Part shown: positions 368 to 52,761 of the stretch, piece by piece
How the letters are laid out: every line of letters starts with the position of its first letter
How positions within the stretch are numbered: the first letter of the stretch is position 1
NCBI GenBank assembly: GCA_020632135.1
Contig: JACKGC010000001.1
Span: 180,241-244,240 of the forward strand
DNA length: 64,000 nucleotides
Reading direction: 5' to 3'
Source: Candidatus Nomurabacteria bacterium
GTDB lineage: Bacteria; Patescibacteriota; Minisyncoccia; Phycocordibacterales; UBA918
Position numbers and translations under genes: made by a program
Notes under the pieces: model-generated
What the model was told of the DNA's origin: nothing
What the model saw: the letters and a program-made list of their open reading frames with translations, nothing else
Databases searched by the model: none

Positions 368-1064
368 CTTCTGAGCTGGGGGTGGTCTCAAGCGGCGCGT
401 CCTCTGGACGCGCCGCTTCTGCGTCAGTGTCGATCTCCTCACTCACCGCTTCTGTACTCGACGCGACCGCAGCAGTCGAGCTCGCAGTAGCATCAGTATT
501 TGACGCAGTCGTGGAACTCGCTGTTGTACTTGCCACTTCTACCGGCGGCTTTGGCGGTGTTTGAATACCAAGGCCGTGTAGACCGCCGTCTACCTTACGT
601 TCCTTGTTGGTATTTTGTACCGGCACCTCGATCTGTGTGATCATCAGGTCTTGCTCAGTCGCCTGGTTGTTTTTGATCCGGTCGTTACGTGCTTTGATGG
701 TTGCTTGCACATCGATCTGGCCCTGGTCGGTGAAGCCCACTGCCGCCGAGGAACCAAGCCCAACTACCAACAGCACACCAACCACCATAAGACGTTTGCG
801 CTTACGACGAACTATCGCCTTATTCCCCGCCAGTGATGTTGGCGCCTTTCGTTCCTCTGTGGTTTCTGGTGGCGGCGCGGGCTTTTTGACCTTCACTGGC
901 TTTTGCTCTACCTCATCCTGCTGCTTGCGCACTGGTTCAGCCGTACTCTCGCGAGTACTCCTGCGTGTGGCACGCTTGCGCACCGCACGTCTACGCGGTA
1001 CTTCTGGCTCATCAGATGAACGAGGCATATTGCCAGAATTGTACCATCTGGCCGAAAGAACCAC
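357..1064 (-). CDS. hypothetical single-pass membrane protein (basic N-terminus, Ser/Thr/Ala-rich C-terminus)
   Basis: 235-aa ORF with one hydrophobic helix (LMVVGVLLVVGLGSSAAVGF). Alternative start at 1028 (MPRSSDE). No family recognised. Confidence 0.5.
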   Translation of the reverse strand: MVLSARWYNSGNMPRSSDEPEVPRRRAVRKRATRRSTRESTAEPVRKQQDEVEQKPVKVKKPAPPPETTEERKAPTSLAGNKAIVRRKRKRLMVVGVLLVVGLGSSAAVGFTDQGQIDVQATIKARNDRIKNNQATEQDLMITQIEVPVQNTNKERKVDGGLHGLGIQTPPKPPVEVASTTASSTTASNTDATASSTAAVASSTEAVSEEIDTDAEAARPEDAPLETTPSSEATP

Positions 1065-1285
1065 TAACCCTGCTCACACGCGCGATCACTTTTTTCGCCA
1101 CTGACGTTTCTGGAGTGATTTTGAGCGAGCTATTTCAGCTACGTGGCAATGTAAGAAGCTTGAAGCAGTGCGATACCCTACCGGCTTCGAACGCTTACCG
1201 GATTTACCGGGGCGATGTTTCATTATTGGTAGTGTAGCAAAATGGCCGCGCGCCAAAGGCGCGCGGCCACTGCTATACTACATCC

Positions 1286-1897
1286 ATGAAACGCTTGCGG
1301 CTTTATATAGCACTCACTCTGGCGCTCGGCGTTGCTGGCTGGCTCTTCTGGCCCGAACCAGCCCCGCTCCTACCTACCACGGGTAGCACTATCGTGATAT
1401 TTGGCGACAGTTTAGCAGCCGGGGTCGGGGCGGCCGAGGGTGGCGATATCGCCTCCCGGCTCACCACCGCCCTCGGCCGCCCCATCTTGAACCTCGGAGT
1501 CCCCGGCGATACCACCGCTGATGGTCTCGCCCGAATTGAAGAACTCCTCGCCGCTGACCCGCAGGTTGTAATACTCCTTCTCGGCGGCAACGACGCTCTC
1601 AAGCAAGTCCCGGTCGAAGACATTTTCGCAAATCTTACGCGCATCATCACGCGCATCCAGGCAGTTGGCGCGGCAGTAATACTCGTGGGAGAACCAGGCG
1701 GCCTCTACGGCAACCGTTTCGAAAAGGAATACGAACGTCTCGCACGAACATATCGCACCTTCTATGTACCCAACATCCTCTCCGGACTCATTGGCCGCGC
1801 TGAATACATGAGCGATTACATTCACCCCAACGACGCCGGCTACCAAAAGGCCACCGAGCGCATTTTACCGGTGGTACAAGACGCGCTCGGTGTCTAA
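1286..1897 (+). CDS. SGNH/GDSL-family hydrolase with N-terminal signal/anchor
   Basis: Conserved blocks FGDSLAAG, LLLGGNDAL and IHPNDAGY. Hydrophobic N-terminus. Confidence 0.8.
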   Translation: MKRLRLYIALTLALGVAGWLFWPEPAPLLPTTGSTIVIFGDSLAAGVGAAEGGDIASRLTTALGRPILNLGVPGDTTADGLARIEELLAADPQVVILLLGGNDALKQVPVEDIFANLTRIITRIQAVGAAVILVGEPGGLYGNRFEKEYERLARTYRTFYVPNILSGLIGRAEYMSDYIHPNDAGYQKATERILPVVQDALGV

Positions 1898-2503
1898 TTA
1901 AGACTTCTTAGTGATCCGTAACCAAAAGTAAAGCGTGGTAGCAACCATGGCACCAAGCGTGTCCGCCAACATATCTTTCTGCGCATCCCAGATGTCTCCC
2001 TGGCTACCAAGATACGCAGCCCCCGCCTCCGGTGCAGCGCCTGCGGCGTAGATCCACTCAATGAGTTCGTACCCCATCGCGACCGTTGCGATCGCAAAGA
2101 TCGGGTACGTGTACAGCAAAAAACGATCAGTGACCAACCGCTTCACAGACAACCACTCAGCGATCGCAAACGCGTACAACCCGACACTAAAGTGTGCGAT
2201 CCGATCGAAGTGGTTGCGTTCAAACCCAAAGAAGTCAGTGACGTACTCAAACGGCACTTGTGCGAAGGTCCAGTGTCCACCGATCGTGTGCAGGTATATG
2301 AGCACAAACATGAGTACGTACGCTGTGCTAGAAAAGCGTACGCCTCTGGCATACAAGCCAACTATGGCAAGAACAATGATCCAGACCGTCAAATTTTCCA
2401 CAAACCACGTTGGTCGATCGACCGGATCAAAGGCGAGTACTGTAAATAGAACAATGTAGCCTGCCAGTAGCCACTGCAAGCAAGTATTTTGGATCAATCT
2501 CAT
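1898..2503 (-). CDS. DUF2238/YjdF-like polytopic membrane protein
   Basis: 201-aa ORF with about 6 hydrophobic helices. HTIGGHWTF and NHFDRIAHF segments resemble the YjdF family (from memory). Confidence 0.55.
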   Translation of the reverse strand: MRLIQNTCLQWLLAGYIVLFTVLAFDPVDRPTWFVENLTVWIIVLAIVGLYARGVRFSSTAYVLMFVLIYLHTIGGHWTFAQVPFEYVTDFFGFERNHFDRIAHFSVGLYAFAIAEWLSVKRLVTDRFLLYTYPIFAIATVAMGYELIEWIYAAGAAPEAGAAYLGSQGDIWDAQKDMLADTLGAMVATTLYFWLRITKKS

Positions 2504-2523
2504 ATGAAAAATTATACAGCACT

Positions 2524-2550
2524 AAAAAAGCGCGACCCGAAGGGTCGCGC
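2524..2550 (-). terminator. intrinsic terminator (GCGCGACCC-GAA-GGGTCGCGC, U-tract on minus strand)
   Basis: 9-bp GC stem. The A6 run on the plus strand gives a U6 tail on the minus strand, downstream of the regulator gene. Confidence 0.7.
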
Positions 2551-2599
2551 GCAACTCGCTACACAGCAGCCACACAAAGAACAACAGGATCAACGGCCA

Positions 2600-3289
2600 T
2601 CACACTTCCTGCATCGACTCATCGGTTGCAAGCATGTACCCAAAATCGCGACTGTACCTGATCAATCGCTTCCCTACCACCGGATCGATCTTTTTCAGGC
2701 GGCTACGAATGCGACACATATACGTCCGCATCACCCCCTCCGGATCAACACTGCTTGCATTAAAGAAGTGTCTGACACTGGCCTTTGACACCGACTTACC
2801 TTGATATTCGGCAAGCTTGGCCAAAATGGAAAACTCTTTAGGGGTGAACGACACTTTCTTTTGATACATTCTCGCCTCACGGCGTCTAAGATCAACTTCG
2901 AGCGGACCGGCGTATATGATACGCTGCAGCATTGCCTCACGGTGACGCGTTCGAGCTAAAAAGACCGCCGCGATCTCTTGCGGGTCAAGGCGGTCGGAGA
3001 CCGCGTCATCAAACCCATCTTCGATCCGAGCGATGCGACCAAAGTGAAAACTATGAGCAGGCACCACGGCGATCAACTGATGTTCCAACGCCACTTCACG
3101 AGCTCGCAAGACGAACTCCGTGTTCGCATACGGAAACAAGACCGCTCCCAACTGATGCTTGCCATATCGCGCATCGTCGTGGAGCATCTTGATCGCCGCT
3201 CGTTCGCCAAGACAGTGCATGATCGGTACACCATGCGTTCGAAGCAGTTGCCCAATTTCTTGAGACATATCAACTAAAAGTAATTTCAC
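2600..3289 (-). CDS. OmpR/PhoB-type winged-helix regulator with degenerate (pseudo) receiver domain
   Basis: GTG at 3289 lies 6 nt after GGGAGA. The C-terminus has an OmpR-like wHTH (FTPKEFSILAKLAEYQGKSVSK...RTYMCRIRSRLKK). The receiver-like N-terminus lacks the phospho-acceptor Asp. The longer 277-aa ORF would overlap the neighbouring gene. Confidence 0.7.
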   Translation of the reverse strand: MKLLLVDMSQEIGQLLRTHGVPIMHCLGERAAIKMLHDDARYGKHQLGAVLFPYANTEFVLRAREVALEHQLIAVVPAHSFHFGRIARIEDGFDDAVSDRLDPQEIAAVFLARTRHREAMLQRIIYAGPLEVDLRRREARMYQKKVSFTPKEFSILAKLAEYQGKSVSKASVRHFFNASSVDPEGVMRTYMCRIRSRLKKIDPVVGKRLIRYSRDFGYMLATDESMQEV

Positions 3290-3393
3290 GTGCGTCTCCC
3301 GTTTCTGCACAGAACAAACCGCCGCAATGCTACATAACAAGAGGCGGTGAGTCAACTGGTAGGCGGCGCGGAGCCCGAAGGGCTCCCCGCCGC

Positions 3394-3912
3394 CTACCGA
3401 CGCAATACGAATCGCAGCTCCTTCTCTGCCCACTCCTTCGCATATGCCACGCCAATGCGTGGCGTGCTCTCAATTTGCTCTGACGAAACCATCGTCTCCC
3501 CCTCTTCGACCCAGAGTCCGACTTTCTTCCCAACCGACTGACCATTGAGCGTGCGCGTAATACCAAGCGCCTTAGTGAGCTTGCCCGGCCCATTCCACTT
3601 CCCCACGCCGCGAATGAGTACGGCCGCCGGGTACCCAGCCTCACCGGTCACAATATTCAACATGTCGTACATGCCATACACCAAGTACATATAGATCGTA
3701 CCCGGCCGCCCAAACATAACTTCAGTGCGCGCTGTCCGCCCCTTACTAGCGTGACTTGCCAAGTCGTGTGGACCAACGTACGCTTCTGTTTCAGTGATGA
3801 TGTGTCGCTCAATTTTCTCCCCCACTCGTACACAGAGTACGCAGCCTAAAAGCTCCCGTGCCACCACCTCAGCTGGTCGGTCAAAAAATGGGTTCTGGAG
3901 CATGCGCGTCAT
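3394..3912 (-). CDS. mpg: DNA-3-methyladenine glycosylase (Mpg/AAG family)
   Basis: ARELLGC, ITETEAYVGPHDLASHA and GTIYMYLVYGMYDMLNIV motifs are typical of the family. Confidence 0.85.
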   Translation of the reverse strand: MTRMLQNPFFDRPAEVVARELLGCVLCVRVGEKIERHIITETEAYVGPHDLASHASKGRTARTEVMFGRPGTIYMYLVYGMYDMLNIVTGEAGYPAAVLIRGVGKWNGPGKLTKALGITRTLNGQSVGKKVGLWVEEGETMVSSEQIESTPRIGVAYAKEWAEKELRFVLRR

Positions 3913-5187: not shown

Positions 5188-5594
5188 AACTCACTTATAT
5201 CAGATTTACGATGTTAACAAACTAGACTAGGTGTGGTTTTTCATGTACCGATCAATTCTTTCTTCTCTTCAGTACTTTTGTTTCCTGCAAAATATACCTC
5301 GATACACAGCACCTCCACTGCTGTGCCATCAAACCCACACACCACTCGAGACAGTGCACCTTTTGCCGCTCGGCACATCATGCGCGAGCGTGTAGCACAC
5401 ACGCACGCACATACCGCACGACTTTCAACCTGGCAATTTTTAGAATTTTATGTCCCTGTTCCAACTTCTCGGAAGCACGTTCGCCATGAATATCTTGTAT
5501 TGATCGTGACACGGCACGCCACACACCTTGAAACCATCCTGTTTCGTAGTAGTGTATGGCCAGAACAGTTGATCCACACAAAGGAGTGCTCTAC

Positions 5595-5936
5595 GTGACC
5601 ACCTATCGCTACTTTCTCGAACCGATCGGCCCCGAAGCCAATGAGGCACTGGCCGACCTCCTCAACCAAATGGGCGAATCTGCCTCGTCGTGTGAACGAC
5701 GAAACGTCATGACCCAAAGGGGATTGGTCGAATTCATGTACGAAGTACCGCGGCACGCGACGGTGACCATCGCTGGCCACTCGGTACACAAAGGACACTT
5801 CCGAGCCTATGTGCAAGAAGGTGCTGGCAAGATCCGTCAGCACTCCTTGTACAAGAACATCGGCAAGCGAGTGTCTCGAGCAAAGGGGGTGCAAAGGGTT
5901 AAACGAGAGCTCAAAGAAAAAGCCAAACGGCGCTAG
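5595..5936 (+). CDS. hypothetical basic protein
   Basis: GTG at 5595 lies 8 nt after AAGGAG, and the terminator at 5966-5995 follows. A longer form starting at ATG 5556 is possible. Confidence 0.45.
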   Translation: MTTYRYFLEPIGPEANEALADLLNQMGESASSCERRNVMTQRGLVEFMYEVPRHATVTIAGHSVHKGHFRAYVQEGAGKIRQHSLYKNIGKRVSRAKGVQRVKRELKEKAKRR

Positions 5937-42568: not shown

Positions 42569-44083
42569 CTACAACTCCGCCATCGCCTCATCAATGAGAT
42601 CTTCGATCTCTTCGACGAGATCCAATACCTCATCCCAATCTTCGTCTTCAAAAGCATCTTCCGCGTCATTCAAGAGGTCATCTGCCTCATCCAAAATACC
42701 TTCCGCTTTCTTGGTACTCTTACCCGCGTCGTCGGCATCATACACTTCGTCCCAGGCCTCATCAAGCGCTTTGTCGATATCCTCAAGCGCTTCGTCTGCC
42801 TCGTCTTCATCTTCATCAGAAGAACCCCCGATCGCGTCGATCGCTTCGTCGATCAAGTCCTCTGCCTCTTCTGCCTGGTCGATCGCTTCCTCATAATCTT
42901 CTTCGTCGATAGCGATGTCAGCCCGCTTCAGGGCTCGCTCCGCGTCATCTAGCAGATCTTGGGCGTCCTCGACATCCTCGCCGTCCTCATCAGCTTCGTC
43001 GATCTCCTCCTCAGCTGCATCAAAGTCATCCCACACATCTTCAACGTACTTTTCTGCGTCTTTGTCTGAAATAAAGTCGATCTCATCGAGCGCGTCTTCA
43101 AGCAACTCTTCCGCATCGAGCGCGTCGCTCTTGGCTTGACGGTACACTCGCTCCTCAAATGCGTCCTTTGCATCATCAAGGAGATCTTCTGCCTCCCCGA
43201 TCAGCTCTTCGGCGTCACCAGTATCTTCGTCCTTGTCTTCAGCCTCATCAAAGAGATCCTGTACTTCCTCGAGCAGATCATCAACATCATCAATAATGTC
43301 TTCTGCTTCACTTGCCTCAGATTCACCGCCAGCGTCCTCGTACGCATCTGTCGCATCATCCAGAGCGGTCACTGCTGTTTCCTCAGCTTCAGCGAAGTCT
43401 CCATCGAAATAGCTCTCCAGAGCCTCAAACAGAGACTCAATGACATCACGAACATCTTCATCGATGTCCAACGCCTCATCTGGGTCATCGTCACGTAGGT
43501 CGTCAAGCTCATCATACGTGTTGAGAATAAGGTCCATTGCATCGCTAATGAGTTGCTCCGCGTCCGTTTGCGTCTTGCTCTTGGCCGAGGTTGAGATGCC
43601 CGCCACTTGCGGCGCTGGTGTCGTGACCGTAGCCGGAAGCGTTGGCTGTGGCGTGGCAGCATTGAGCTGTGACTGTAGATCATCAACTAAGCTGAGAAGT
43701 CGCTCAGCTTCAGTCTGTGCCACTGCAGAACCCGCTCCGACCACTTCCTGATACTTCGCCTGCGAAACTGAACCAAAGATACCGATGGCCGGAGAAACAT
43801 CATGATCTGCTTGCCACTTGGCTACGGCTTCACGAGTGAGTGAACCGTATTTGTCGGTCTCATTACCGGGTGACCCTGGCCCTTCGGCGGTGAGCTCGTA
43901 GCCATTAGCATTAAGGTACTCCTGCAGACAGCGCACGCTCTCGTCGATCACACCAACCTCAAGCGTTTGCGAAAACGTACAAGTGTTGGCCTGCGCATAA
44001 AATACAAATGGTGCGCTAAAAAGTAACGCAACGGCTAGACAAATAAATGAGACACGCGATCGAATGGAAACGGACAGGTTCAT
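42569..44083 (-). CDS. secreted peptidoglycan-binding-domain protein with roughly 320-aa hyper-acidic repeat region
   Basis: Signal peptide. PG_binding_1-like segment (VRCLQEYLNANGY...LTREAVAKWQADHDV). Then Asp/Glu-dominated repeats such as AEDLLDDAKDAFEE and AQDLLDDAERAL. Confidence 0.8.
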   Translation of the reverse strand: MNLSVSIRSRVSFICLAVALLFSAPFVFYAQANTCTFSQTLEVGVIDESVRCLQEYLNANGYELTAEGPGSPGNETDKYGSLTREAVAKWQADHDVSPAIGIFGSVSQAKYQEVVGAGSAVAQTEAERLLSLVDDLQSQLNAATPQPTLPATVTTPAPQVAGISTSAKSKTQTDAEQLISDAMDLILNTYDELDDLRDDDPDEALDIDEDVRDVIESLFEALESYFDGDFAEAEETAVTALDDATDAYEDAGGESEASEAEDIIDDVDDLLEEVQDLFDEAEDKDEDTGDAEELIGEAEDLLDDAKDAFEERVYRQAKSDALDAEELLEDALDEIDFISDKDAEKYVEDVWDDFDAAEEEIDEADEDGEDVEDAQDLLDDAERALKRADIAIDEEDYEEAIDQAEEAEDLIDEAIDAIGGSSDEDEDEADEALEDIDKALDEAWDEVYDADDAGKSTKKAEGILDEADDLLNDAEDAFEDEDWDEVLDLVEEIEDLIDEAMAEL

Positions 44084-45407: not shown

Positions 45408-45460
45408 AACTGAATGGTTAGAAAATAGTGAGAAAAATCTCTTATCTTCCTAACGGATAA

Positions 45461-46534: not shown

Positions 46535-47152
46535 TTAGGCCCCGTAGACCTCTACTAATGTTCCCTTTCGACCTGGTACTGCACCTGATACTACGAGAGT
46601 ATTTTCAGCAGCATTTACTTGAAGGACCTTAAGTCCCTTTACAGTGACGGTGTCGCCACCCATGCGTCCGGCCATGCGAGTACCCTTAAGTACGCGATTG
46701 TTACCGGTCGCACCGATTGAACCTGGCTCACGCTCAGAATGCTTCTGACCGTGCGAGCGCCGTCCACCGGCAAAGCCATGGCGCTTCACCACACCCTGGA
46801 ATCCCTTACCTTTTGAAATAGCGGAGACCGTGATGTCATCACCTGGCTCAAACACAGACACGTCGATAGTGGCACCCTTTTCTACGTCGCCAATAGTCTC
46901 TCCCTTGAATTCACTTGGGCGAAACTCGCGCGCGGCAGCAGCGGTCCCAAAATGACCCTTCTGTGCTTTGCTGACACGATGCTCTTTCTGCTCACCAAAC
47001 GCGAGCTGCACCGCTGCGTAGCCGTCCTTTTCTGCGGTCTTCACCTGAGCGATAGTCGCTGGTGTGACCGTGAGCACGGTAGCTGCGCGACACACTCCTT
47101 CGGTATCGAAGACCTGTGTCATGCCAGTCTTAGTTCCTACGATAAATTTCAT
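46535..47152 (-). CDS. rplC: 50S ribosomal protein L3
   Basis: GTKTGMTQVF...KGKGFQGVVKRHGF...SHGQKHSEREPGSIG is uL3. Confidence 0.97.
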   Translation of the reverse strand: MKFIVGTKTGMTQVFDTEGVCRAATVLTVTPATIAQVKTAEKDGYAAVQLAFGEQKEHRVSKAQKGHFGTAAAAREFRPSEFKGETIGDVEKGATIDVSVFEPGDDITVSAISKGKGFQGVVKRHGFAGGRRSHGQKHSEREPGSIGATGNNRVLKGTRMAGRMGGDTVTVKGLKVLQVNAAENTLVVSGAVPGRKGTLVEVYGA

Positions 47153-47210
47153 TATTTATGTATGAATCTTGTAAATCGCTTTTATCATCAAATGATGTAG
47201 ACCCATACAA

Positions 47211-47267
47211 CAAATCGCGCGGATTTTCCGCGAGCACAGCTCGTCGTCAGAAAATCCGCGCGATTTG
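47211..47267. repeat. perfect 18-bp-arm hairpin just upstream of rplC
   Basis: CAAATCGCGCGGATTTTC-(21 nt with inner CGAGC/GCTCG stem)-GAAAATCCGCGCGATTTG. Confidence 0.85.
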
Positions 47268-47508
47268 TGCCCATTGGTCCGGGGCGCTCGCTTCGCTCGC
47301 GCCACGTACGTAGGTCTTTAAAAGCTGGGGGTAGTATACGCATACTGATGAAAAATGCAACTAGTACAGCTCTCCGACGTCAGATCTCCTTTGCGGAGAA
47401 GAAATTGGATCTGACGAAGATCCAAGATGAATTCGAAATAGTCGGCTTCGCTTATTTACATAAAAAAGCCGAGCGAAGCTCGACTTTTATTAACTGATAA
47501 CGTTTGAT

Positions 47509-47631
47509 CTATCCGATCACGGGAGCGATATGGAAGTACGCAAGTACTGCAATCGTCGCCAGACTGAGGCACTGGACCATCCAGCTATCTTCAGACTGAA
47601 ACGTCATCTCCTTCTTTTCTAAGTTTTCCAT
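47509..47631 (-). CDS. possible 40-codon ORF with C-terminal TM helix
   Basis: MENLEKKEMTFQSEDSWMVQCLSLATIAVLAYFHIAPVIG. Too short for the ORF track and has no good SD. Lies directly 3' of the structured domain on the minus strand. Confidence 0.25.
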   Translation of the reverse strand: MENLEKKEMTFQSEDSWMVQCLSLATIAVLAYFHIAPVIG

Positions 47632-47667
47632 ATAATTTGGAGTTAAAACTTATCCTCTAAAGAACTG

Positions 47668-47971
47668 TAGAAGTTGTCTAAGCTCTCACCATAGATACTA
47701 CGTTGTACATAATGACTCTGGTGTTTACTTTGTTTAATCTCACCGAGTATAGAATTTACGATGAGAATTTAGACAACTTCTATCGGAAGCCATCTGAGTT
47801 CTCAACACAAGCATGTTGTTACTAACTCTTGTTTCGGGTCGTCGTGACCAATGATCTGGCTGCAAAACTGCGCTTCGTTATCGCTGAACGAAAGTTCAAC
47901 TCAAACTTCAGCTTGTTTTTCGCTCAGATCATTGGTCACTTCGGACCTCGATGAGAACTCAGATGACTTCC
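47668..47971 (-). other. two adjacent nested-hairpin domains (candidate structured RNA or MITE-like element)
   Basis: Helix 47668-47681 / 47769-47782 is 14 bp and perfect. Helix 47785-47804 / 47952-47971 is 20 bp with one mismatch, which becomes a G-U pair only on the minus strand. Nested helix 47844-47858 / 47925-47939 is 15 bp and perfect. Flanked by the 10-bp direct repeat CTAAAGAACT (47657-47666 and 47971-47980). Confidence 0.45.
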
Positions 47972-48021
47972 TAAAGAACTATTTCTAATGCCTGCTGTAT
48001 TCCCGAGGGAGTGGAGCGGGC

Positions 48022-48088
48022 ACAGGAGGCGAATCGCGTCGACGATAACGACGAGAAAGGCGAATCGCTTGCGCGATTCGCCTCCTGT
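48022..48088 (-). promoter_or_regulatory. three-copy GGCGAATCGC element able to form mutually exclusive hairpins
   Basis: Copy A 48022-38, copy B 48059-68, inverted copy C 48072-88. B/C forms a 10-bp stem with a GCAA loop plus UUUCUCGUCGUU on the minus strand. A/C forms a 17-bp stem. Confidence 0.4.
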
Positions 48089-48155
48089 TGATTACAGTAT
48101 GAACCTTCGCGAAAAGAGTGCAAGTAGCATCTGTGGATAACTTGAGTGGTGTCAA

Positions 48156-48183
48156 TTTGAAATCATTTTAGCGGTGGTATACT
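48156..48183 (+). promoter_or_regulatory. promoter TTTGAA-N16-(TGg)TATACT for the 48-codon gene
   Basis: Extended -10 and a plausible -35. Confidence 0.5.
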
Positions 48184-48221
48184 GCTCGCGGAAATCAATT
48201 GCCAACACTGGAGGACAAAAA

Positions 48222-48368
48222 ATGATGATCAAGCAAGTCATTATCATCTACAGCCTGTTTGGATTTGAAATGTGTTACAACCCCTGCCCTTGGCAACAGA
48301 TTGGTATTTGTAAGACCCACCACAGATCGAGGTATGGACCACACTTTACTCGATCAGTGAGGAGGTAA
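48222..48368 (+). CDS. 48-aa hydrophobic/basic Cys-containing peptide (type I toxin-like)
   Basis: GGAGG lies 7 nt before the ATG. MMIKQVIIIYSLFGFEMCYNPCPWQQIGICKTHHRSRYGPHFTRSVRR. Own promoter and terminator. Confidence 0.5.
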   Translation: MMIKQVIIIYSLFGFEMCYNPCPWQQIGICKTHHRSRYGPHFTRSVRR

Positions 48369-48376
48369 CAATCAAG

Positions 48377-48405
48377 AAAGCCGGCCCCAAAGGGGTCGGC
48401 TTTTC
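48377..48405 (+). terminator. terminator GAAAGCCGGCCCC-AAA-GGGGTCGGCTTTTC
   Basis: The stem contains a G-U pair only when read on the plus strand. T-run follows. Confidence 0.7.
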
Positions 48406-48497
48406 CTAGGCTACTATCGATATTCAGACGTCATGGGTTTGCGTAGCACTGTTTTAAACATACAACCACGACTTCCATCAGAGACCAGGTGGTCAGC

Positions 48498-48534
48498 CTC
48501 CAAAAAACGCCCTATGAATGGGCGTTTTTTGGAG
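48498..48534. terminator. bidirectional terminator CTCCAAAAAACGCCC-(7 nt)-GGGCGTTTTTTGGAG after rpsJ
   Basis: 15-bp perfect stem that includes A6/T6. Confidence 0.8.
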
Positions 48535-48570
48535 AACTCAAAATATGGTCGTTACACTCCCTATTTTGAG

Positions 48571-48909
48571 CTACATCATCTTCACATCAATGTTCACACC
48601 TGACGGCAGTGAGAGGTTCGTGAGAGCTTCCACTACCTTTGGACCCGGATTGAGGATGTCGATCACACGCTTGTGCGTTCGCATCTCGAATTGTTCTCGC
48701 GCGTCCTTGTGTACGAACGTTGAGCGGTTAACCGTGTACTTCTTGATCTCCGTTGGCAATGGGATCGGACCAACCACCTTGGCGTCGAAACGCATGGCAG
48801 TGTCGATGATCTGCTTGACCGAAGTATCGAGGATCTTGTGTTCGTAGGCACGCACTCGAATACGGAGTTTGTTGATCGCACCGGCAGTTTTTTCGGTTGT
48901 TTCAGCCAT
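48571..48909 (-). CDS. rpsJ: 30S ribosomal protein S10
   Basis: LRIRVRAYEHKILD...GPIPLPTEIKKYTVNRSTFVHKDAREQFEMRTHKR is uS10. Confidence 0.97.
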   Translation of the reverse strand: MAETTEKTAGAINKLRIRVRAYEHKILDTSVKQIIDTAMRFDAKVVGPIPLPTEIKKYTVNRSTFVHKDAREQFEMRTHKRVIDILNPGPKVVEALTNLSLPSGVNIDVKMM

Positions 48910-49083: not shown

Positions 49084-50271
49084 TTAGGCGATGATTTTGG
49101 TTACTACGCCTGCACCTACTGTCTTACCACCCTCACGGATAGCAAAGTTCTGTTGCTCCTCAAGCGCTACTGGAGTTACCAGCTTCACTTTGAAGGTTGC
49201 AGTGTCTCCTGGCATAACCATCTCAGTACCTTCTGCGAGGGTTACATCACCAGTTACGTCAGTAGTACGTACGTAGAACTGTGGCTTGTAACCTGAGAAG
49301 AATGGTGTGTGACGACCACCCTCATCCTTTGAAAGGACGTATACTTCAGCCTCGAACTCAGCGTGCGGGGTTACAGAACCCTTCGCTGCGAGCACCTGAC
49401 CACGGTGTACATCTTCCTTTTTGGTACCGCGCAGGAGGATACCAGCATTGTCGCCTGCCTGAGCAGCATCAAGCTGCTTATTGAACATTTCAACTCCGGT
49501 CACTGTTGTGACTGAAGTATCCTTGATGCCAACGATCTCTACTTCTTCACCGACCTTTACCTTACCGCGCTCTACACGACCAGTTACTACTGTGCCGCGT
49601 CCTTCAATTGAGAAAATGTCCTCAATTGGCATCAGGAATGGCTTGTCGAGTTCACGTTCAGGGGTTGGGAAGTACTCATCCATCTTATCCATCAGTTCAA
49701 CGATCTTTGCCTGGTAGTCTGCGTCGCCTTCGAGCGCCTTAAGTGCAGAACCATGAATGATCGGTGCATTTTCACCATCGTATCCAGCCTTGGTAAGATC
49801 TTCGCGAAGCTCTTCCTCCACGAGCATGAGCATTTCTTCATCATCTACCATGTCACACTTGTTAAGGAACACAAGCATCTTTGGTACACCTACCTGCTTT
49901 GCAAGAAGGATGTGCTCCTTTGTTTGTGGCATAGCACCATCAGTAGCTGCCACTACGAGGATAGCACCGTCCATCTGTGCCGCACCGGTGATCATGTTCT
50001 TGATGTAGTCAGCGTGACCTGGCGCATCAATGTGGGCGTAGTGACGATTTGGAGTCTCGTACTCAGAGTGAGAAAGAGAAATAGTAATACCACGAGCCTT
50101 TTCTTCTGGGGCTTTGTCAATTTCGCTAACATCCTTTACGTTAGCTGCATACCCATCACCTTTTGCATTGAGGGTAGTAAGAATAGCAGCAGTCAAGGTG
50201 GTTTTACCGTGGTCGACGTGACCAATGGTACCGACGTTGATGTGCGGCTTTGAACGATCAAAATCTGCCAT
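49084..50271 (-). CDS. tuf: elongation factor Tu
   Basis: [21 protein letters not shown] and NKCD motifs. 395 aa. Confidence 0.98.
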
Positions 50272-50332: not shown

Positions 50333-50490
50333 AAAAAGCCTGTGCCACTTTCGTGGCGACAGGCTCTTTCGCGCGCTTGATTCTCCGTGTGCAAGCGAAA
50401 CGGCGCGAGAACGCCGCGCTTCACTTGTACGCGAATGCGTGTGAAAGAGCACTGTATATCCCCCCTTCCACAGACGAATCTGTGAGCGGT
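50333..50490 (-). ncRNA. structured RNA of about 155 nt (leader/attenuator or sRNA) between fusA and tuf
   Basis: On the minus strand: CACAGA-UUCG-UCUGUG, an 8-bp GCUCUUUC/GAAAGAGC helix, and inner helices. Ends in GCCUGUcGCCAC-GAAA-GUGGCACAGGC followed by U5, 62 nt before the tuf ATG. Confidence 0.45.
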
Positions 50491-50583: not shown

Positions 50584-52761
50584 TTACTCAGCCACGCCAC
50601 GCGCTTTCTTGATCTCCATCGCTACGTTTGGTGGTACCACCTCGTAGTGATCGAATTCCATAGTCATGGATGCGCGACCCTGGGTCATTGAGCGGAGGGT
50701 GTTGGTGTACCCAAACATCTCAGCCAATGGGATCTTTGCGTTTACGATGGTCTTACCGCCCAGTTCTGAGGTACCTTCAAGCTGTCCGCGCTTTGAAGAA
50801 ATGTTTCCTTGAATATCACCCATGTATTCTTCTGGCGTACGGACCTCAACCTTCATGATCGGTTCCAGGATCACCGCACCAGCCTTGGCTGCTGCTTCCT
50901 TAAACGCATTGATACCAGCGAGTTTGAAGGCGATCTCAGACGAGTCGACATCGTGGTAACTACCATCGAACAGCTCAACGGACACATCCTCCATCTTGTA
51001 CCCAGCAACGAAACCGCGTCCCATTGCTTCCTTCGCTCCCTTCATCACGGCTGGGATGTACTCACCAGGCACAACACCACCCTTGATGTTATTAATGAAT
51101 TCAAAGTGCTCATCACGAGTGATATTCTTAGCCACCTTTACTGGCTCGCCCGTTTCCGGGTCGATCGCAAGTGGCGGAAGCGGCTTAATGCGGATCTTCA
51201 CGTGACCGTACTGACCACGTCCACCAGACTGCTTGATGTACTTGTATTCAGCTTCGGCTTCACGCTGGATCGTTTCGCGGTACGCCACCTGTGGAGCGCC
51301 GATGTTGGCCTCCACGCCGAACTCACGCTTCATACGATCAACGATAATATCGAGGTGAAGCTCACCCATACCAGCGATGATCGTCTCGAGTGTTTCTTCG
51401 TCAGTTGACACCTTAAAGGTTGGATCTTCGTCAGCGAGACGCTTCAGTGCCACACCCATCTTCTCCTGGTCGTTCTTGGTCTTTGGTTCGACACGTACTG
51501 CCACCACTGGCTCTGGGAAAGTAATGGTCTCAAGCTCGATCTGTGCATTTTCGTCACAGAGTGTGTCTGAAGTCTTTACTTCCTTAAGACCTACTACTGC
51601 AGCAATTTCTCCTGCGTACACTTCTTCAATTTCTGCTCGCTTGTCAGCTTGGAGTCGTACAATACGACCGACACGTTCTTTGTTGCCTTGTGAGGAGTTG
51701 TAGATGTAGGTACCAGCCTTCACCTTTCCTGAGTACACCCGGAAGAAAGCCAGCTGCCCCACGAACTTGTCGTCCTGTAGCTTGAATACGAGCGCTGAAA
51801 ATGGCTCATCGTCAGATGGCTTTCGGGTGAGCACAGTCTCTTCATCTTTCGGGTCAACACCTTCCACTGGTGGCAAGTCGAGCGGTGATGGGAGGTAATC
51901 TACCACCGCGTCGAGCACGAGCTGCACGCCGATATTCTTAAGGGCTGTACCAGTCATCACTGGGAAGATCTCGTTGGCGATCACTGCCTTGCGCAGGGTC
52001 TTTTTGAGATCATCGACTGATGGTTCTTCACCACCAAGATATGCTTCCATGAGCACATCGTCATGAGCCACCACCTGTTCGATCAGCTCAGCGCGCCACT
52101 TTTGCGCTTCCTCAAGCATGTCAGCTGGGATCTCCTCTTCGGTCACGGTCATGCCCATTTCACCACCAAAGCGGTATGCCTTCATGGTGATGAGGTCAAC
52201 GACACCACTCATAGTATCTTCAGCACCGATCGGGAGCTGGATACGCACTGCCTTGGTTGAAAGGCGGTCATGAATTGACTTCACTGATGCGTCAAAGTCA
52301 GCACCGAGCTTGTCCATCTTATTTATGAAACAAATACGTGGCACATTGGCCTCGTCAGCATACCCCCAGTTGGTTTCGGTCTGTGGTTCAACACCTGCTG
52401 AACCGTCGAATACCACAACCGCACCGTCGAGCACACGCATTGACCGCTTTACCTCAGCGGTAAAGTCGATGTGACCTGGCGTGTCGATGATGTTAAAGGT
52501 GTGTTTCAGCTCCTTGGTGGTTCGGTCAGCCTCCATTGTCTTGGTCCAGTTACAAGAGATCGCTGCAGCGGTAATAGTGATACCGCGTTCGCGCTCTTGC
52601 TCCATCCAGTCAGTGACTGTTGCGCCATCGTGCACCTCACCGATCTTGTGAGACATACCGGTGTAAAAGAGGATACGTTCAGACGTGGTGGTCTTACCGG
52701 CGTCTACGTGCGCTACGATACCGAAGTTTCGTAGTTTCTCGAGTGGAAATTCTCGTGCCAT
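50584..52761 (-). CDS. fusA: elongation factor G
   Basis: [20 protein letters not shown] and NKMD motifs. 725 aa. Confidence 0.98.

Follow-up and report, generated by a model that had tools for sequence, protein, structure and literature searches.

The stretch of DNA analysed here, 64,000 nucleotides of the Candidatus Nomurabacteria contig JACKGC010000001.1 (hereafter the window), is bacterial chromosome, in which no tRNA and no rRNA gene was found along the 64 kb. It carries on its minus strand, in this order, fusA (50584–52761), tuf (49084–50271), rpsJ, which encodes the ribosomal protein (r-protein) S10 (48571–48909), and, after a gap, rplC, which encodes L3 (46535–47152), rplD and rplB, with an rplW open reading frame (ORF) placed between rplD and rplB via homology. 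The gap between rpsJ and rplC measures 1418 nt and contains, on the strand of both genes, a 304-nt element made up of two long hairpin domains, a copy of the motif GTTCTTT (GUUCUUU in RNA) on each side of this element, and an ORF of 40 codons. The hairpin domains are probably a self-folding insert in the leader of the small ORF, where they would hold two boxA-like motifs together as a Nus-type control site.

In a scan of species-representative genomes, the closest relatives by L3 were the loci L012 (85% identity) and L013 (81%), which placed the organism in the class Paceibacteria of the Candidate Phyla Radiation (CPR), whilst eleven further loci (L001–L011), all metagenome contigs fetched via the exact S10 and L3 proteins, are ≥99.9% identical to the window and thus uninformative for covariation; what looked like an indel in L004 (48232–48242 of the window) was rejected as a scaffold gap of Ns. 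Positions 48089–47461 (minus strand) align to L012 712–1344 at ~75–82% identity, both just downstream of rpsJ. A conserved unit of ~630 nt in the window (~48090 to 47462, minus strand) is found in more than 25 lineages, and since promoter, leader, small ORF and terminator are conserved in this order, they would make up one transcription unit. The leader is structured and ~460 nt long in the window, and the order common to 23 distinct leaders runs from the rpsJ terminator through TTATCC(A/C)CA, the −35 and −10 elements, a 5′ hairpin (P1) and variable small hairpins to two GTTCTTT motifs and the ATG.

The geometry of the hairpin element is as the preliminary description of this DNA had given it: the 14-bp helix, the 20-bp helix with one mismatch and the 15-bp helix are all in place, the 10-bp repeat CTAAAGAACT flanks the element on both sides (coordinates in Table 1), CTCACC..ATAG is present twice inside domain 1, and the lone mismatch of the 20-bp helix is C:A on the plus strand and G·U on the minus strand. 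The terminal inverted repeats it had reported are likewise present as the outer helices of 14 and 20 bp, which are also RNA helices with compensatory changes. The long arm of domain 2 carries the 15-bp helix and a conserved tip, a 22-nt direct repeat (82% identity) is common to the arms of both domains, and domains 1 and 2 of the window are, by sequence, paralogous. A 641-nt minus-strand RNA folds with a minimum free energy (MFE) of −255.7 kcal/mol (z = −18), whereas the plus strand reaches −240.9 kcal/mol (z = −12), and the separate domains have fold z-scores of −11 (domain 2) and −7 (domain 1). A search of the masked 64-kb window revealed no second copy of the element, Rfam 15 has no gathering-level match anywhere in the window, and permissive Rfam scans (E = 10) of 47000–48600 and of a related copy in locus L099, described below, returned only chance-level miRNA and snoRNA matches.

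The flanking repeat CTAAAGAACT is the reverse complement of AGTTCTTTAG, that is, it represents the GTTCTTT motif pair. GTTCTTT is invariant in 46/46 motif instances, its second copy lies 15–34 nt from the ATG in 23/23 leaders, and in 16 of the 23 distinct leaders the two copies are separated by a gap of only 2–8 nt without any insert (e.g. TTGTTCTTTAATTGTTCTTT). The tandem motif occurs once per locus, on the gene strand only and solely before this ORF (~830 kb of loci). The segment between the motifs, 2–8 nt in most loci, is 22–32 nt long in L092, L094 and L103 (22, 24 and 32 nt), 66–68 nt in L111 and L013, and 303–307 nt in L012 and the window, so that the start-to-start spacing of 9–15 nt without an insert grows to as much as 314 nt with one. 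Each insert is a hairpin with paired ends, which starts 1–5 nt past the first motif and ends in “CA” right before the second, and the basal stems of the inserts are homologous, GAA(A/G)...(C/T)TTC. On this comparison, the two domains represent an RNA insert that is specific to the lineage and occupies a 2–8 nt slot between the GTTCTTT motifs of the leader. The preliminary description had considered a miniature inverted-repeat transposable element (MITE) with a target-site duplication equally well supported as a folded RNA; both GTTCTTT copies, however, already stand side by side at the empty sites of insert-free relatives, so the repeat on the two flanks does not represent a target-site duplication. 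As motif spacing varies between 9 and 15 nt even without an insert and reaches 314 nt with one, a rigid DNA-binding site is implausible, and a site for a dimeric DNA-binding protein was rejected on these spacings. The inserts of 22–307 nt amount to a natural experiment in which folding always keeps the motifs adjacent, which argues that the motifs act on RNA and not on DNA.

Covariation between the window and its relatives indicates that the long hairpins are evolutionarily maintained RNA structures of the minus strand. Over the 304-nt element, the RNAalifold consensus of the window and L012 contains 110 pairs: in eight, both partners have changed without loss of pairing, in seven, one partner has changed through G·U, and none is broken; the two sequences differ in 22/212 paired columns and in 36/96 unpaired ones. 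Random substitutions at the same count of paired sites broke ~17 pairs on average, with a minimum of 7 in 100,000 trials (P < 1e-5). Because an RNAalifold consensus favours pairs that fit both sequences, the test was rerun with the MFE structure of the window only: 111/121 pairs hold in L012, nine of them with double changes (P(≤10 failures) < 1e-5), and five of the ten failing pairs are spurious outer pairs outside the element. The structures are assigned to the minus strand because the G·U pairs, 7–8 in number, exist in that reading only. The sense fold is also more stable than the antisense fold by 14–17 kcal/mol for domain 2 (three species) and by 4–10 kcal/mol for domain 1, domain 2 of the window having an MFE of −95.7 kcal/mol in sense and −81.5 kcal/mol in antisense orientation. 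Across six units, 6 of the 12 pairs of the basal helix covary and 72/72 cells are paired.

The proposal of a folded RNA of about 300 nt is thereby upheld as to the selected fold, its compensatory changes at orthologous loci (0/110 pairs broken against L012) and its strand; it fails as to a free-standing gene, since the structure lies inside an ORF leader without a promoter or terminator of its own. An independent small RNA gene of ~300 nt, which would also account for the strong fold and covariation, is accordingly extremely unlikely: a scan revealed nothing resembling a promoter or a terminator where the element begins and ends, the conserved promoter lies ~110 nt upstream and the terminator ~180 nt downstream, past the conserved ORF, and the slot is just 2–8 nt long in most relatives.

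The candidate promoter predicts a transcript start at ~48089–48092, and conservation of sequence with L012 starts at this promoter. Across the 23 leaders, the TTG of the −35 element and an ATAAT-like −10 element are invariant or nearly so, the −10 element of the family being CATAAT-like. The DnaA-box-like sequence TTATCCACA upstream, a perfect DnaA box by its letters, is the single exact copy in the 64-kb window, and TTATCC(A/C)CA is found in the same position in 22/23 family leaders, the exception being L111 with TTGTCCACA; some leaders have two tandem copies. The site suggests control of the small-ORF promoter by DnaA or a similar factor. A replication origin was considered and rejected, as DnaA-like boxes number just one or two and the skew does not change. 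Downstream of the promoter, P1 (ACAGGAGGCG...CGCCTTTCTCTGT) is the sole structure in the consensus of the 23 aligned leaders; the base of P1 is kept, its top varies, and six pairs show double changes. In the window and L012, P1 has an extra third segment, C (48022–48038), which permits an alternative long pairing: segment A (48072–48088) pairs either with B, in an inner hairpin (48058–48083) that has a GCAA loop and precedes UUUCU, or else with C (17 bp, perfect). Segments A, B and C are identical in L012 whilst the linker differs, and the arrangement may serve as a switch between structures. The P1 loop also holds a short ORF, which was rejected as it is not conserved. At the other end of the unit, a GC-rich hairpin and T-run are found ~20–55 nt past the stop codon in 17/21 loci and 113 nt past it in L013; a plus-strand terminator reading of 47443–47490 was dropped because the minus-strand terminator is conserved in L012.

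Table 1. Features of the rpsJ–rplC gap, given in window coordinates
Feature	Position	Strand	Description
DnaA-box-like site TTATCCACA	48132–48140	−	~10 nt upstream of the −35 hexamer
Candidate promoter	48096–48123	−	TTGCAC 48118–48123, 16-nt spacer, CATACT 48096–48101
5′ hairpin P1 (ACAGGAGGCG...CGCCTTTCT)	48022–48088	−	17-bp perfect inverted repeat and inner 11-bp hairpin
First GUUCUUU motif (boxA-like)	47973–47979	−	Within the right-hand CTAAAGAACT copy
Direct repeat CTAAAGAACT, 10 bp	47657–47666 and 47971–47980		Flanks the hairpin element
Domain 2	47785–47971	−	~190-nt three-way junction: 20-bp outer helix, 7-bp helix, long arm, small side hairpin
Domain 2 outer helix	47785–47804/47952–47971		20 bp, one mismatch; 0.00 chance matches expected
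Domain 2 inner helix	47844–47858/47925–47939		15 bp, perfect; extends to 25 nt at 84%
Domain 1	47668–47782	−	115-nt stem-loop; paralogue of the outer part of domain 2; homologous to shorter hairpins in L013, L111, L092, L094 and L103
Domain 1 helix	47668–47681/47769–47782		14 bp, perfect; extends to 33 nt at 82%
Second GUUCUUU motif (boxA-like)	47659–47665	−	34 nt upstream of the small-ORF ATG
Small ORF, 40 aa, MENLEKKEMTFQSEDSWMVQCLSLATIAVLAYFHIAPVIG	47509–47631	−	Polar N-terminus followed by a hydrophobic helix
Intrinsic-terminator-like hairpin GTCGAGCTTCGCTCGGC, then TTTTTT	47462–47484	−	Compensatory changes in L012

The pattern of codon changes and the synteny indicate that the 40-codon ORF is a conserved, coding and previously unannotated gene. 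Compared with L012 and L013, it shows 12 synonymous codon changes and codon-position differences of 11/5/18, with substitutions that include switches between six-fold-degenerate Ser and Leu codons, and its frame stays open. A profile built from the three proteins retrieved 17 metagenome loci and 24 protein clusters of 35–48 aa, all annotated as hypothetical, and in every locus with visible neighbours the gene is flanked by rpsJ and rplC and shares their strand. The protein has no match in Pfam or NCBIfam, and nothing relevant was found in the literature on CPR small proteins. It is the product of a missed gene, hydrophobic and 40 aa long, and the gene holds one fixed position within the most conserved gene cluster of bacteria. 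A peptide of this kind, with one hydrophobic helix, behind a long and very stable leader without an obvious Shine-Dalgarno sequence near its ATG and with a terminator of its own, might be a small membrane toxin of type I, whose folded leader keeps the mRNA inert until it is processed, as in hok and tisB. This is very unlikely, however, because single-copy occurrence and strict rpsJ–rplC synteny across lineages with L3 proteins ~70–85% identical are typical of a housekeeping gene and not of a toxin locus; furthermore, neither a promoter nor a gene is conserved in antisense (the similarity to L012 stops at the terminator), and most members of the family have short leaders and no hairpins.

Domain 2 also occurs outside the small-ORF leader. 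A sensitive search of all loci identified a homologous sequence in L099, from a marine lineage, at 5288–5479, between rplW and rplB and ending 13 nt before the rplB ATG; the small-ORF leader of L099 is without an insert. The domain 2 consensus of the window, L012 and L099 contains 70 pairs, 20 with compensatory double changes, and the 15-bp helix has changed from GTGACCAATGATCTG to GTGGCAAAGAATTGG and is still perfect; the few pair failures are located in the outer helix, at a 1-nt register shift in L099. Loops and junctions, namely CCCGAAACAA, GCUGGAGUYUGA, GACGAAGCG and the apical hairpin, are conserved. The covariance model R1 detected domain 2 in the window, in L012 and in L099, the last together with the identical copies L138–L141, and nowhere else in the ~630 kb searched, and the module is absent from Rfam, from E. 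coli sequence and from the plasmid and viral collections searched. All fetched loci are r-protein neighbourhoods, so negatives on copy number cover the 64-kb window and ~630 kb of relatives, and the apparent restriction of the module to this cluster is partly ascertainment bias.

The rplW–rplB spacer measures 391 nt in L099 and L138 and 51 nt in L124–L133, the nearest relatives of L099 (L23 89% identical). Comparison of L124 with L099 gives an empty site ...CACTAGTTTCTAAC|AATTGAAATATG and a filled site ...CACTAGTTTCTAAC|C[188 nt]GCATCAAAAATTATG, with no duplicated flank. Domain 2 thus stands at an unrelated rplB leader whose site is empty in a sister species, and this comparison of sites implies that it was copied or moved on at least one occasion. 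Empty sites in relatives, raised in the preliminary description as a mark of mobility, do exist at both places, the small-ORF slot being empty in most relatives, although neither has a target-site duplication; the dispersed copies expected of a MITE were not found beyond L012 and L099/L138–L141, either in the masked window or with R1 in ~630 kb. At both sites the module lies in sense orientation in a conserved leader near a start codon, and its conserved loops and pairing mark domain 2 as a discrete RNA module, more than a spacer. It constitutes a covariation-supported RNA motif without an Rfam family, and its second site, with the empty site of the sister species, is a rare documented move of an RNA structural module between leaders. 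The site that took domain 2 in L099 belongs to a second conserved leader, which adjoins rplB upstream and reads GTTAGGAAGATAAG-[variable hairpin]-CACTA(G/T)TTTCTAAC(C), with the ATG ~10 nt further on; it occurs in the window (45417–45454, minus strand), L092 (~5330–5380), L012 (~5820–5870), L113, L099 (5237–5286), L124 (3379–3418) and L134, and this rplB (L2) leader looks undescribed.

The mobility of domain 2 raises the alternative of a selfish palindromic insertion, similar to MITE, ERIC or Correia elements, in which a mobile non-coding domain lands in transcribed leaders and keeps its pairing only because self-folding spares the host leader, with no function of its own. Domain 2 at two unrelated sites, the empty site in the sister species of L099, the slot between the GTTCTTT motifs that is empty in most relatives, an outer helix that doubles as terminal inverted repeats, the local duplication from which the two domains arose and the accumulation of hairpins in operon spacers of this clade would all fit such an origin. 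It nevertheless seems doubtful, if worth serious consideration, since neither site has a target-site duplication, there is one copy per genome region in the sequence searched and none in the plasmid and viral collections, and the orientation is always sense. The G·U pairs and the strand-asymmetric stability indicate selection at the level of RNA, and CCCGAAACAA, GCUGGAGUYUGA and GACGAAGCG have been conserved whilst the helices turned over, which would be unneeded in a neutral spacer.

The setting of both sites suggests another function, that of an autoregulatory leader in which domain 2 mimics an rRNA site and binds an r-protein encoded nearby (e.g. L2, L4 or S10) to give translational feedback. 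Both sites are leaders in the S10/str r-protein cluster, with the L099 module ending next to the rplB start, and a structured three-way junction with conserved unpaired bases would suit protein binding of this kind; however, this setting is in part the ascertainment bias of the fetched loci noted above. In the window and L012, domain 2 precedes an ORF for a small hydrophobic protein and ends ~150 nt from its ATG, it is absent from most relatives, which retain the same genes, and there is neither an Rfam r-leader match nor similarity to E. coli sequence, rRNA included. Such a leader is consequently distinctly unlikely.

The reading preferred here, that of an insert that holds two boxA-like motifs together, depends on the nature of the GUUCUUU(AA) pair, which by analogy with known leaders is inferred to be a candidate boxA, a NusB/NusE(S10) element. 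The boxA consensus GYTCTTTAANA has been used to find Nus-factor targets ≤50 nt from start codons (Baniulyte et al., PMC5725501). At suhB, a boxA located 6 nt away from the Shine-Dalgarno sequence recruits NusB/NusE and other Nus factors, whereupon translation is repressed and Rho-dependent termination follows; a ParE-like toxin gene is regulated like suhB, and several genera have a putative boxA upstream of rpsJ (nusE) (PMC5725501). From phylum to phylum, this consensus drifts (Stringer et al., PMC7665894). The 46 GTTCTTT instances score 9–11 out of 11 against GYTCTTTAANA, those of L119, L095, L104 and L120 including perfect boxA 11-mers, and among the bases that follow GTTCTTT, +7 is A in 25/46 and +8 is A in 34/46. 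In Firmicutes, the rrn boxA is UGUUCUUUGAAAA. As in known cases, the motifs occur in sense orientation only, in the nascent leader and, for the second copy, close to the ATG. In two distant CPR loci (L072 1–406 and L087 1–1056), which carry the only 16S ends among the fetched loci, 16S is followed by a terminator and protein genes and not by 23S; rRNA genes are unlinked there, with no spacer boxA. Elsewhere in the window, GCTCTTTCACA at 50440–50450 (minus strand), in the fusA–tuf spacer ~180 nt upstream of tuf and on the gene strand, matches boxA in 10/11 positions, which may be chance, as the window contains five other 10/11 matches.

Several points weigh against this reading. The consensus used is gamma-proteobacterial and may not be that of the host, the motifs of the window itself end in AG and not AA, tandem copies of boxA are an unusual arrangement, GTTCTTT on its own is common (17 copies in the window), and nothing relevant was found in the literature on NusB in CPR. 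Covariation over the whole 304 nt is drawn from two sequences, and that of domain 2 from three distinct ones; the L3 neighbour-joining tree is too poorly resolved to tell a single insert origin from multiple origins. A generic promoter scan did not call the promoter at 48096–48123, and promoter and transcript ends are placed by conservation only.

In the proposed mechanism, the core leader would consist of P1 and a pair of GUUCUUU(AA) motifs that stay single-stranded shortly before the start codon. Where an insert is present, its closing helices, ending 1–5 nt from each motif, would leave the motifs adjacent in the folded RNA despite 305 nt of DNA between them; selection keeps the helices paired at the RNA level. 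By analogy with the E. coli suhB leader and the lambda nut sites, the pair would act as boxA and control translation initiation and/or termination of the small-ORF unit, whilst the insert would occupy the place of a boxB-like hairpin or a processing stem, perhaps with an additional site for a protein or for RNase III. Should the motifs be boxA, Nus control of non-rRNA genes would extend to the CPR and would be tied there to a gene beside nusE (rpsJ). A more far-reaching scheme, unlikely as a whole, would make domain 2 a transposable RNA-structure module of the CPR, of a kind hitherto unknown, whose copies enter pyrimidine-rich sites in leaders, behind GUUCUUU or GUUUCUAAC and shortly before start codons of the r-protein cluster; together with the tandem boxA-like motifs it would form a miniature rRNA-operon layout of boxA, long processing stem and boxA, through which Nus factors and RNase III could couple a small membrane protein, and L2 in other lineages, to rRNA transcription capacity.

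The neighbourhood of the element is itself variable, and the S10 operon is fragmented in this clade. Among Paceibacteria relatives the rpsJ–rplC gap ranges from ~5 nt to more than 3.5 kb and the rplW–rplB spacer from 1 to 394 nt, and intergenic spacers of the S10 operon repeatedly gain hairpins. A further family of long hairpins, with a shared CTCA(C/T)CGTAC-loop-GTACG, is found just past the rplW stop codon in L099 (5100–5250), L012 (5689–5810) and L134 (3375–3480). Window positions 47200–47361 (minus strand), with a hairpin at 47211–47269, form a block that adjoins rplC upstream and is conserved in L012, L013, L014 and L015; it probably serves as promoter and structured leader for an rplC-rplD-rplW-rplB operon, here detached from rpsJ. 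At 42569–44083 (minus strand), the r-protein cluster is broken after rplB/rpsS by a large PG_binding_1-domain protein, and a 938-aa relative of that protein directly follows the small ORF in L122 and L123, where it replaces rplC (L122 2428–4698). In L013 (Ca. Nomurabacteria HK-STAS-PATE-30), a diversity-generating retroelement at 956–3765 is located between the small ORF and rplC and consists of a Fib_succ_major/C-lectin-like target gene, bAvd, an adenine-rich template repeat (~2367–2585) and a reverse transcriptase; L012 has three unrelated ORFs without a Pfam match in this slot. On the plus strand of the window, between rpsJ and the small-ORF promoter, lies a small ORF (MMIKQVIIIYSLFGF..., 48174–48368) with a GGAGGA Shine-Dalgarno sequence, followed by a terminator-like hairpin and T-run at 48380–48405; it lacks a counterpart in L012 and a match in Pfam. 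A plus-strand ORF at 48223–48368 was rejected, being neither conserved in L012 nor matched in Pfam, as was one at 47350–47497 (plus strand), which is not conserved in L012. Similarity searches of the region and the element against phage, E. coli and plasmid sequence yielded nothing relevant.

Among known systems, boxA/nut sites (boxB-boxA-boxC of the E. coli rrn leader, boxA-boxB of lambda nutL and nutR, and the suhB 5′ untranslated region) share with the window a single-stranded motif of the GYUCUUUAA type in a nascent leader near a start codon, and its association with a hairpin. They differ in that the window has two tandem copies and that the hairpin lies between them and not beside one. 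The motif of the window adjoins rpsJ, similar to the putative boxA near rpsJ (NusE) in several genera (PMC5725501), but is located downstream of rpsJ, before the small ORF, and not upstream, and Nus binding is here inferred from sequence. Two boxA-like motifs around a long stem also recall the layout of rrn operons, with a processing stem between boxA elements. Long duplexes are plausible RNase III substrates.

A non-coding insert of 100–300 nt with inverted ends, which forms a long hairpin in an mRNA leader and is patchy in its presence, resembles ERIC, Correia/NEMIS, RUP, BOX and MITE-like elements; unlike ERIC, Correia, RUP and BOX, the element has no target-site duplication, is single-copy within the searched sequence, and shows strand-specific G·U compensatory evolution, a three-way junction and conserved loops. 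In the manner of rRNA expansion segments and the variable stems of riboswitches and RNase P, a fixed slot accommodates anything from a 6-bp stem to 305 nt, is self-closing and lets its flanks keep their spatial relation, although the insert of the window lies in an mRNA leader and not in a stable RNA, and domain 2 also occurs elsewhere independently. A structured leader inside the S10 cluster is likewise known from r-protein operons, such as the E. coli S10 leader bound by L4; in contrast, the leader of the window has no Rfam r-leader match, its insert is absent in most relatives, and the gene downstream of it is not an r-protein gene. The RNA motif and the small gene are new here, whilst structured leaders and boxA/nut-like sites are the known kinds with which they are to be compared.

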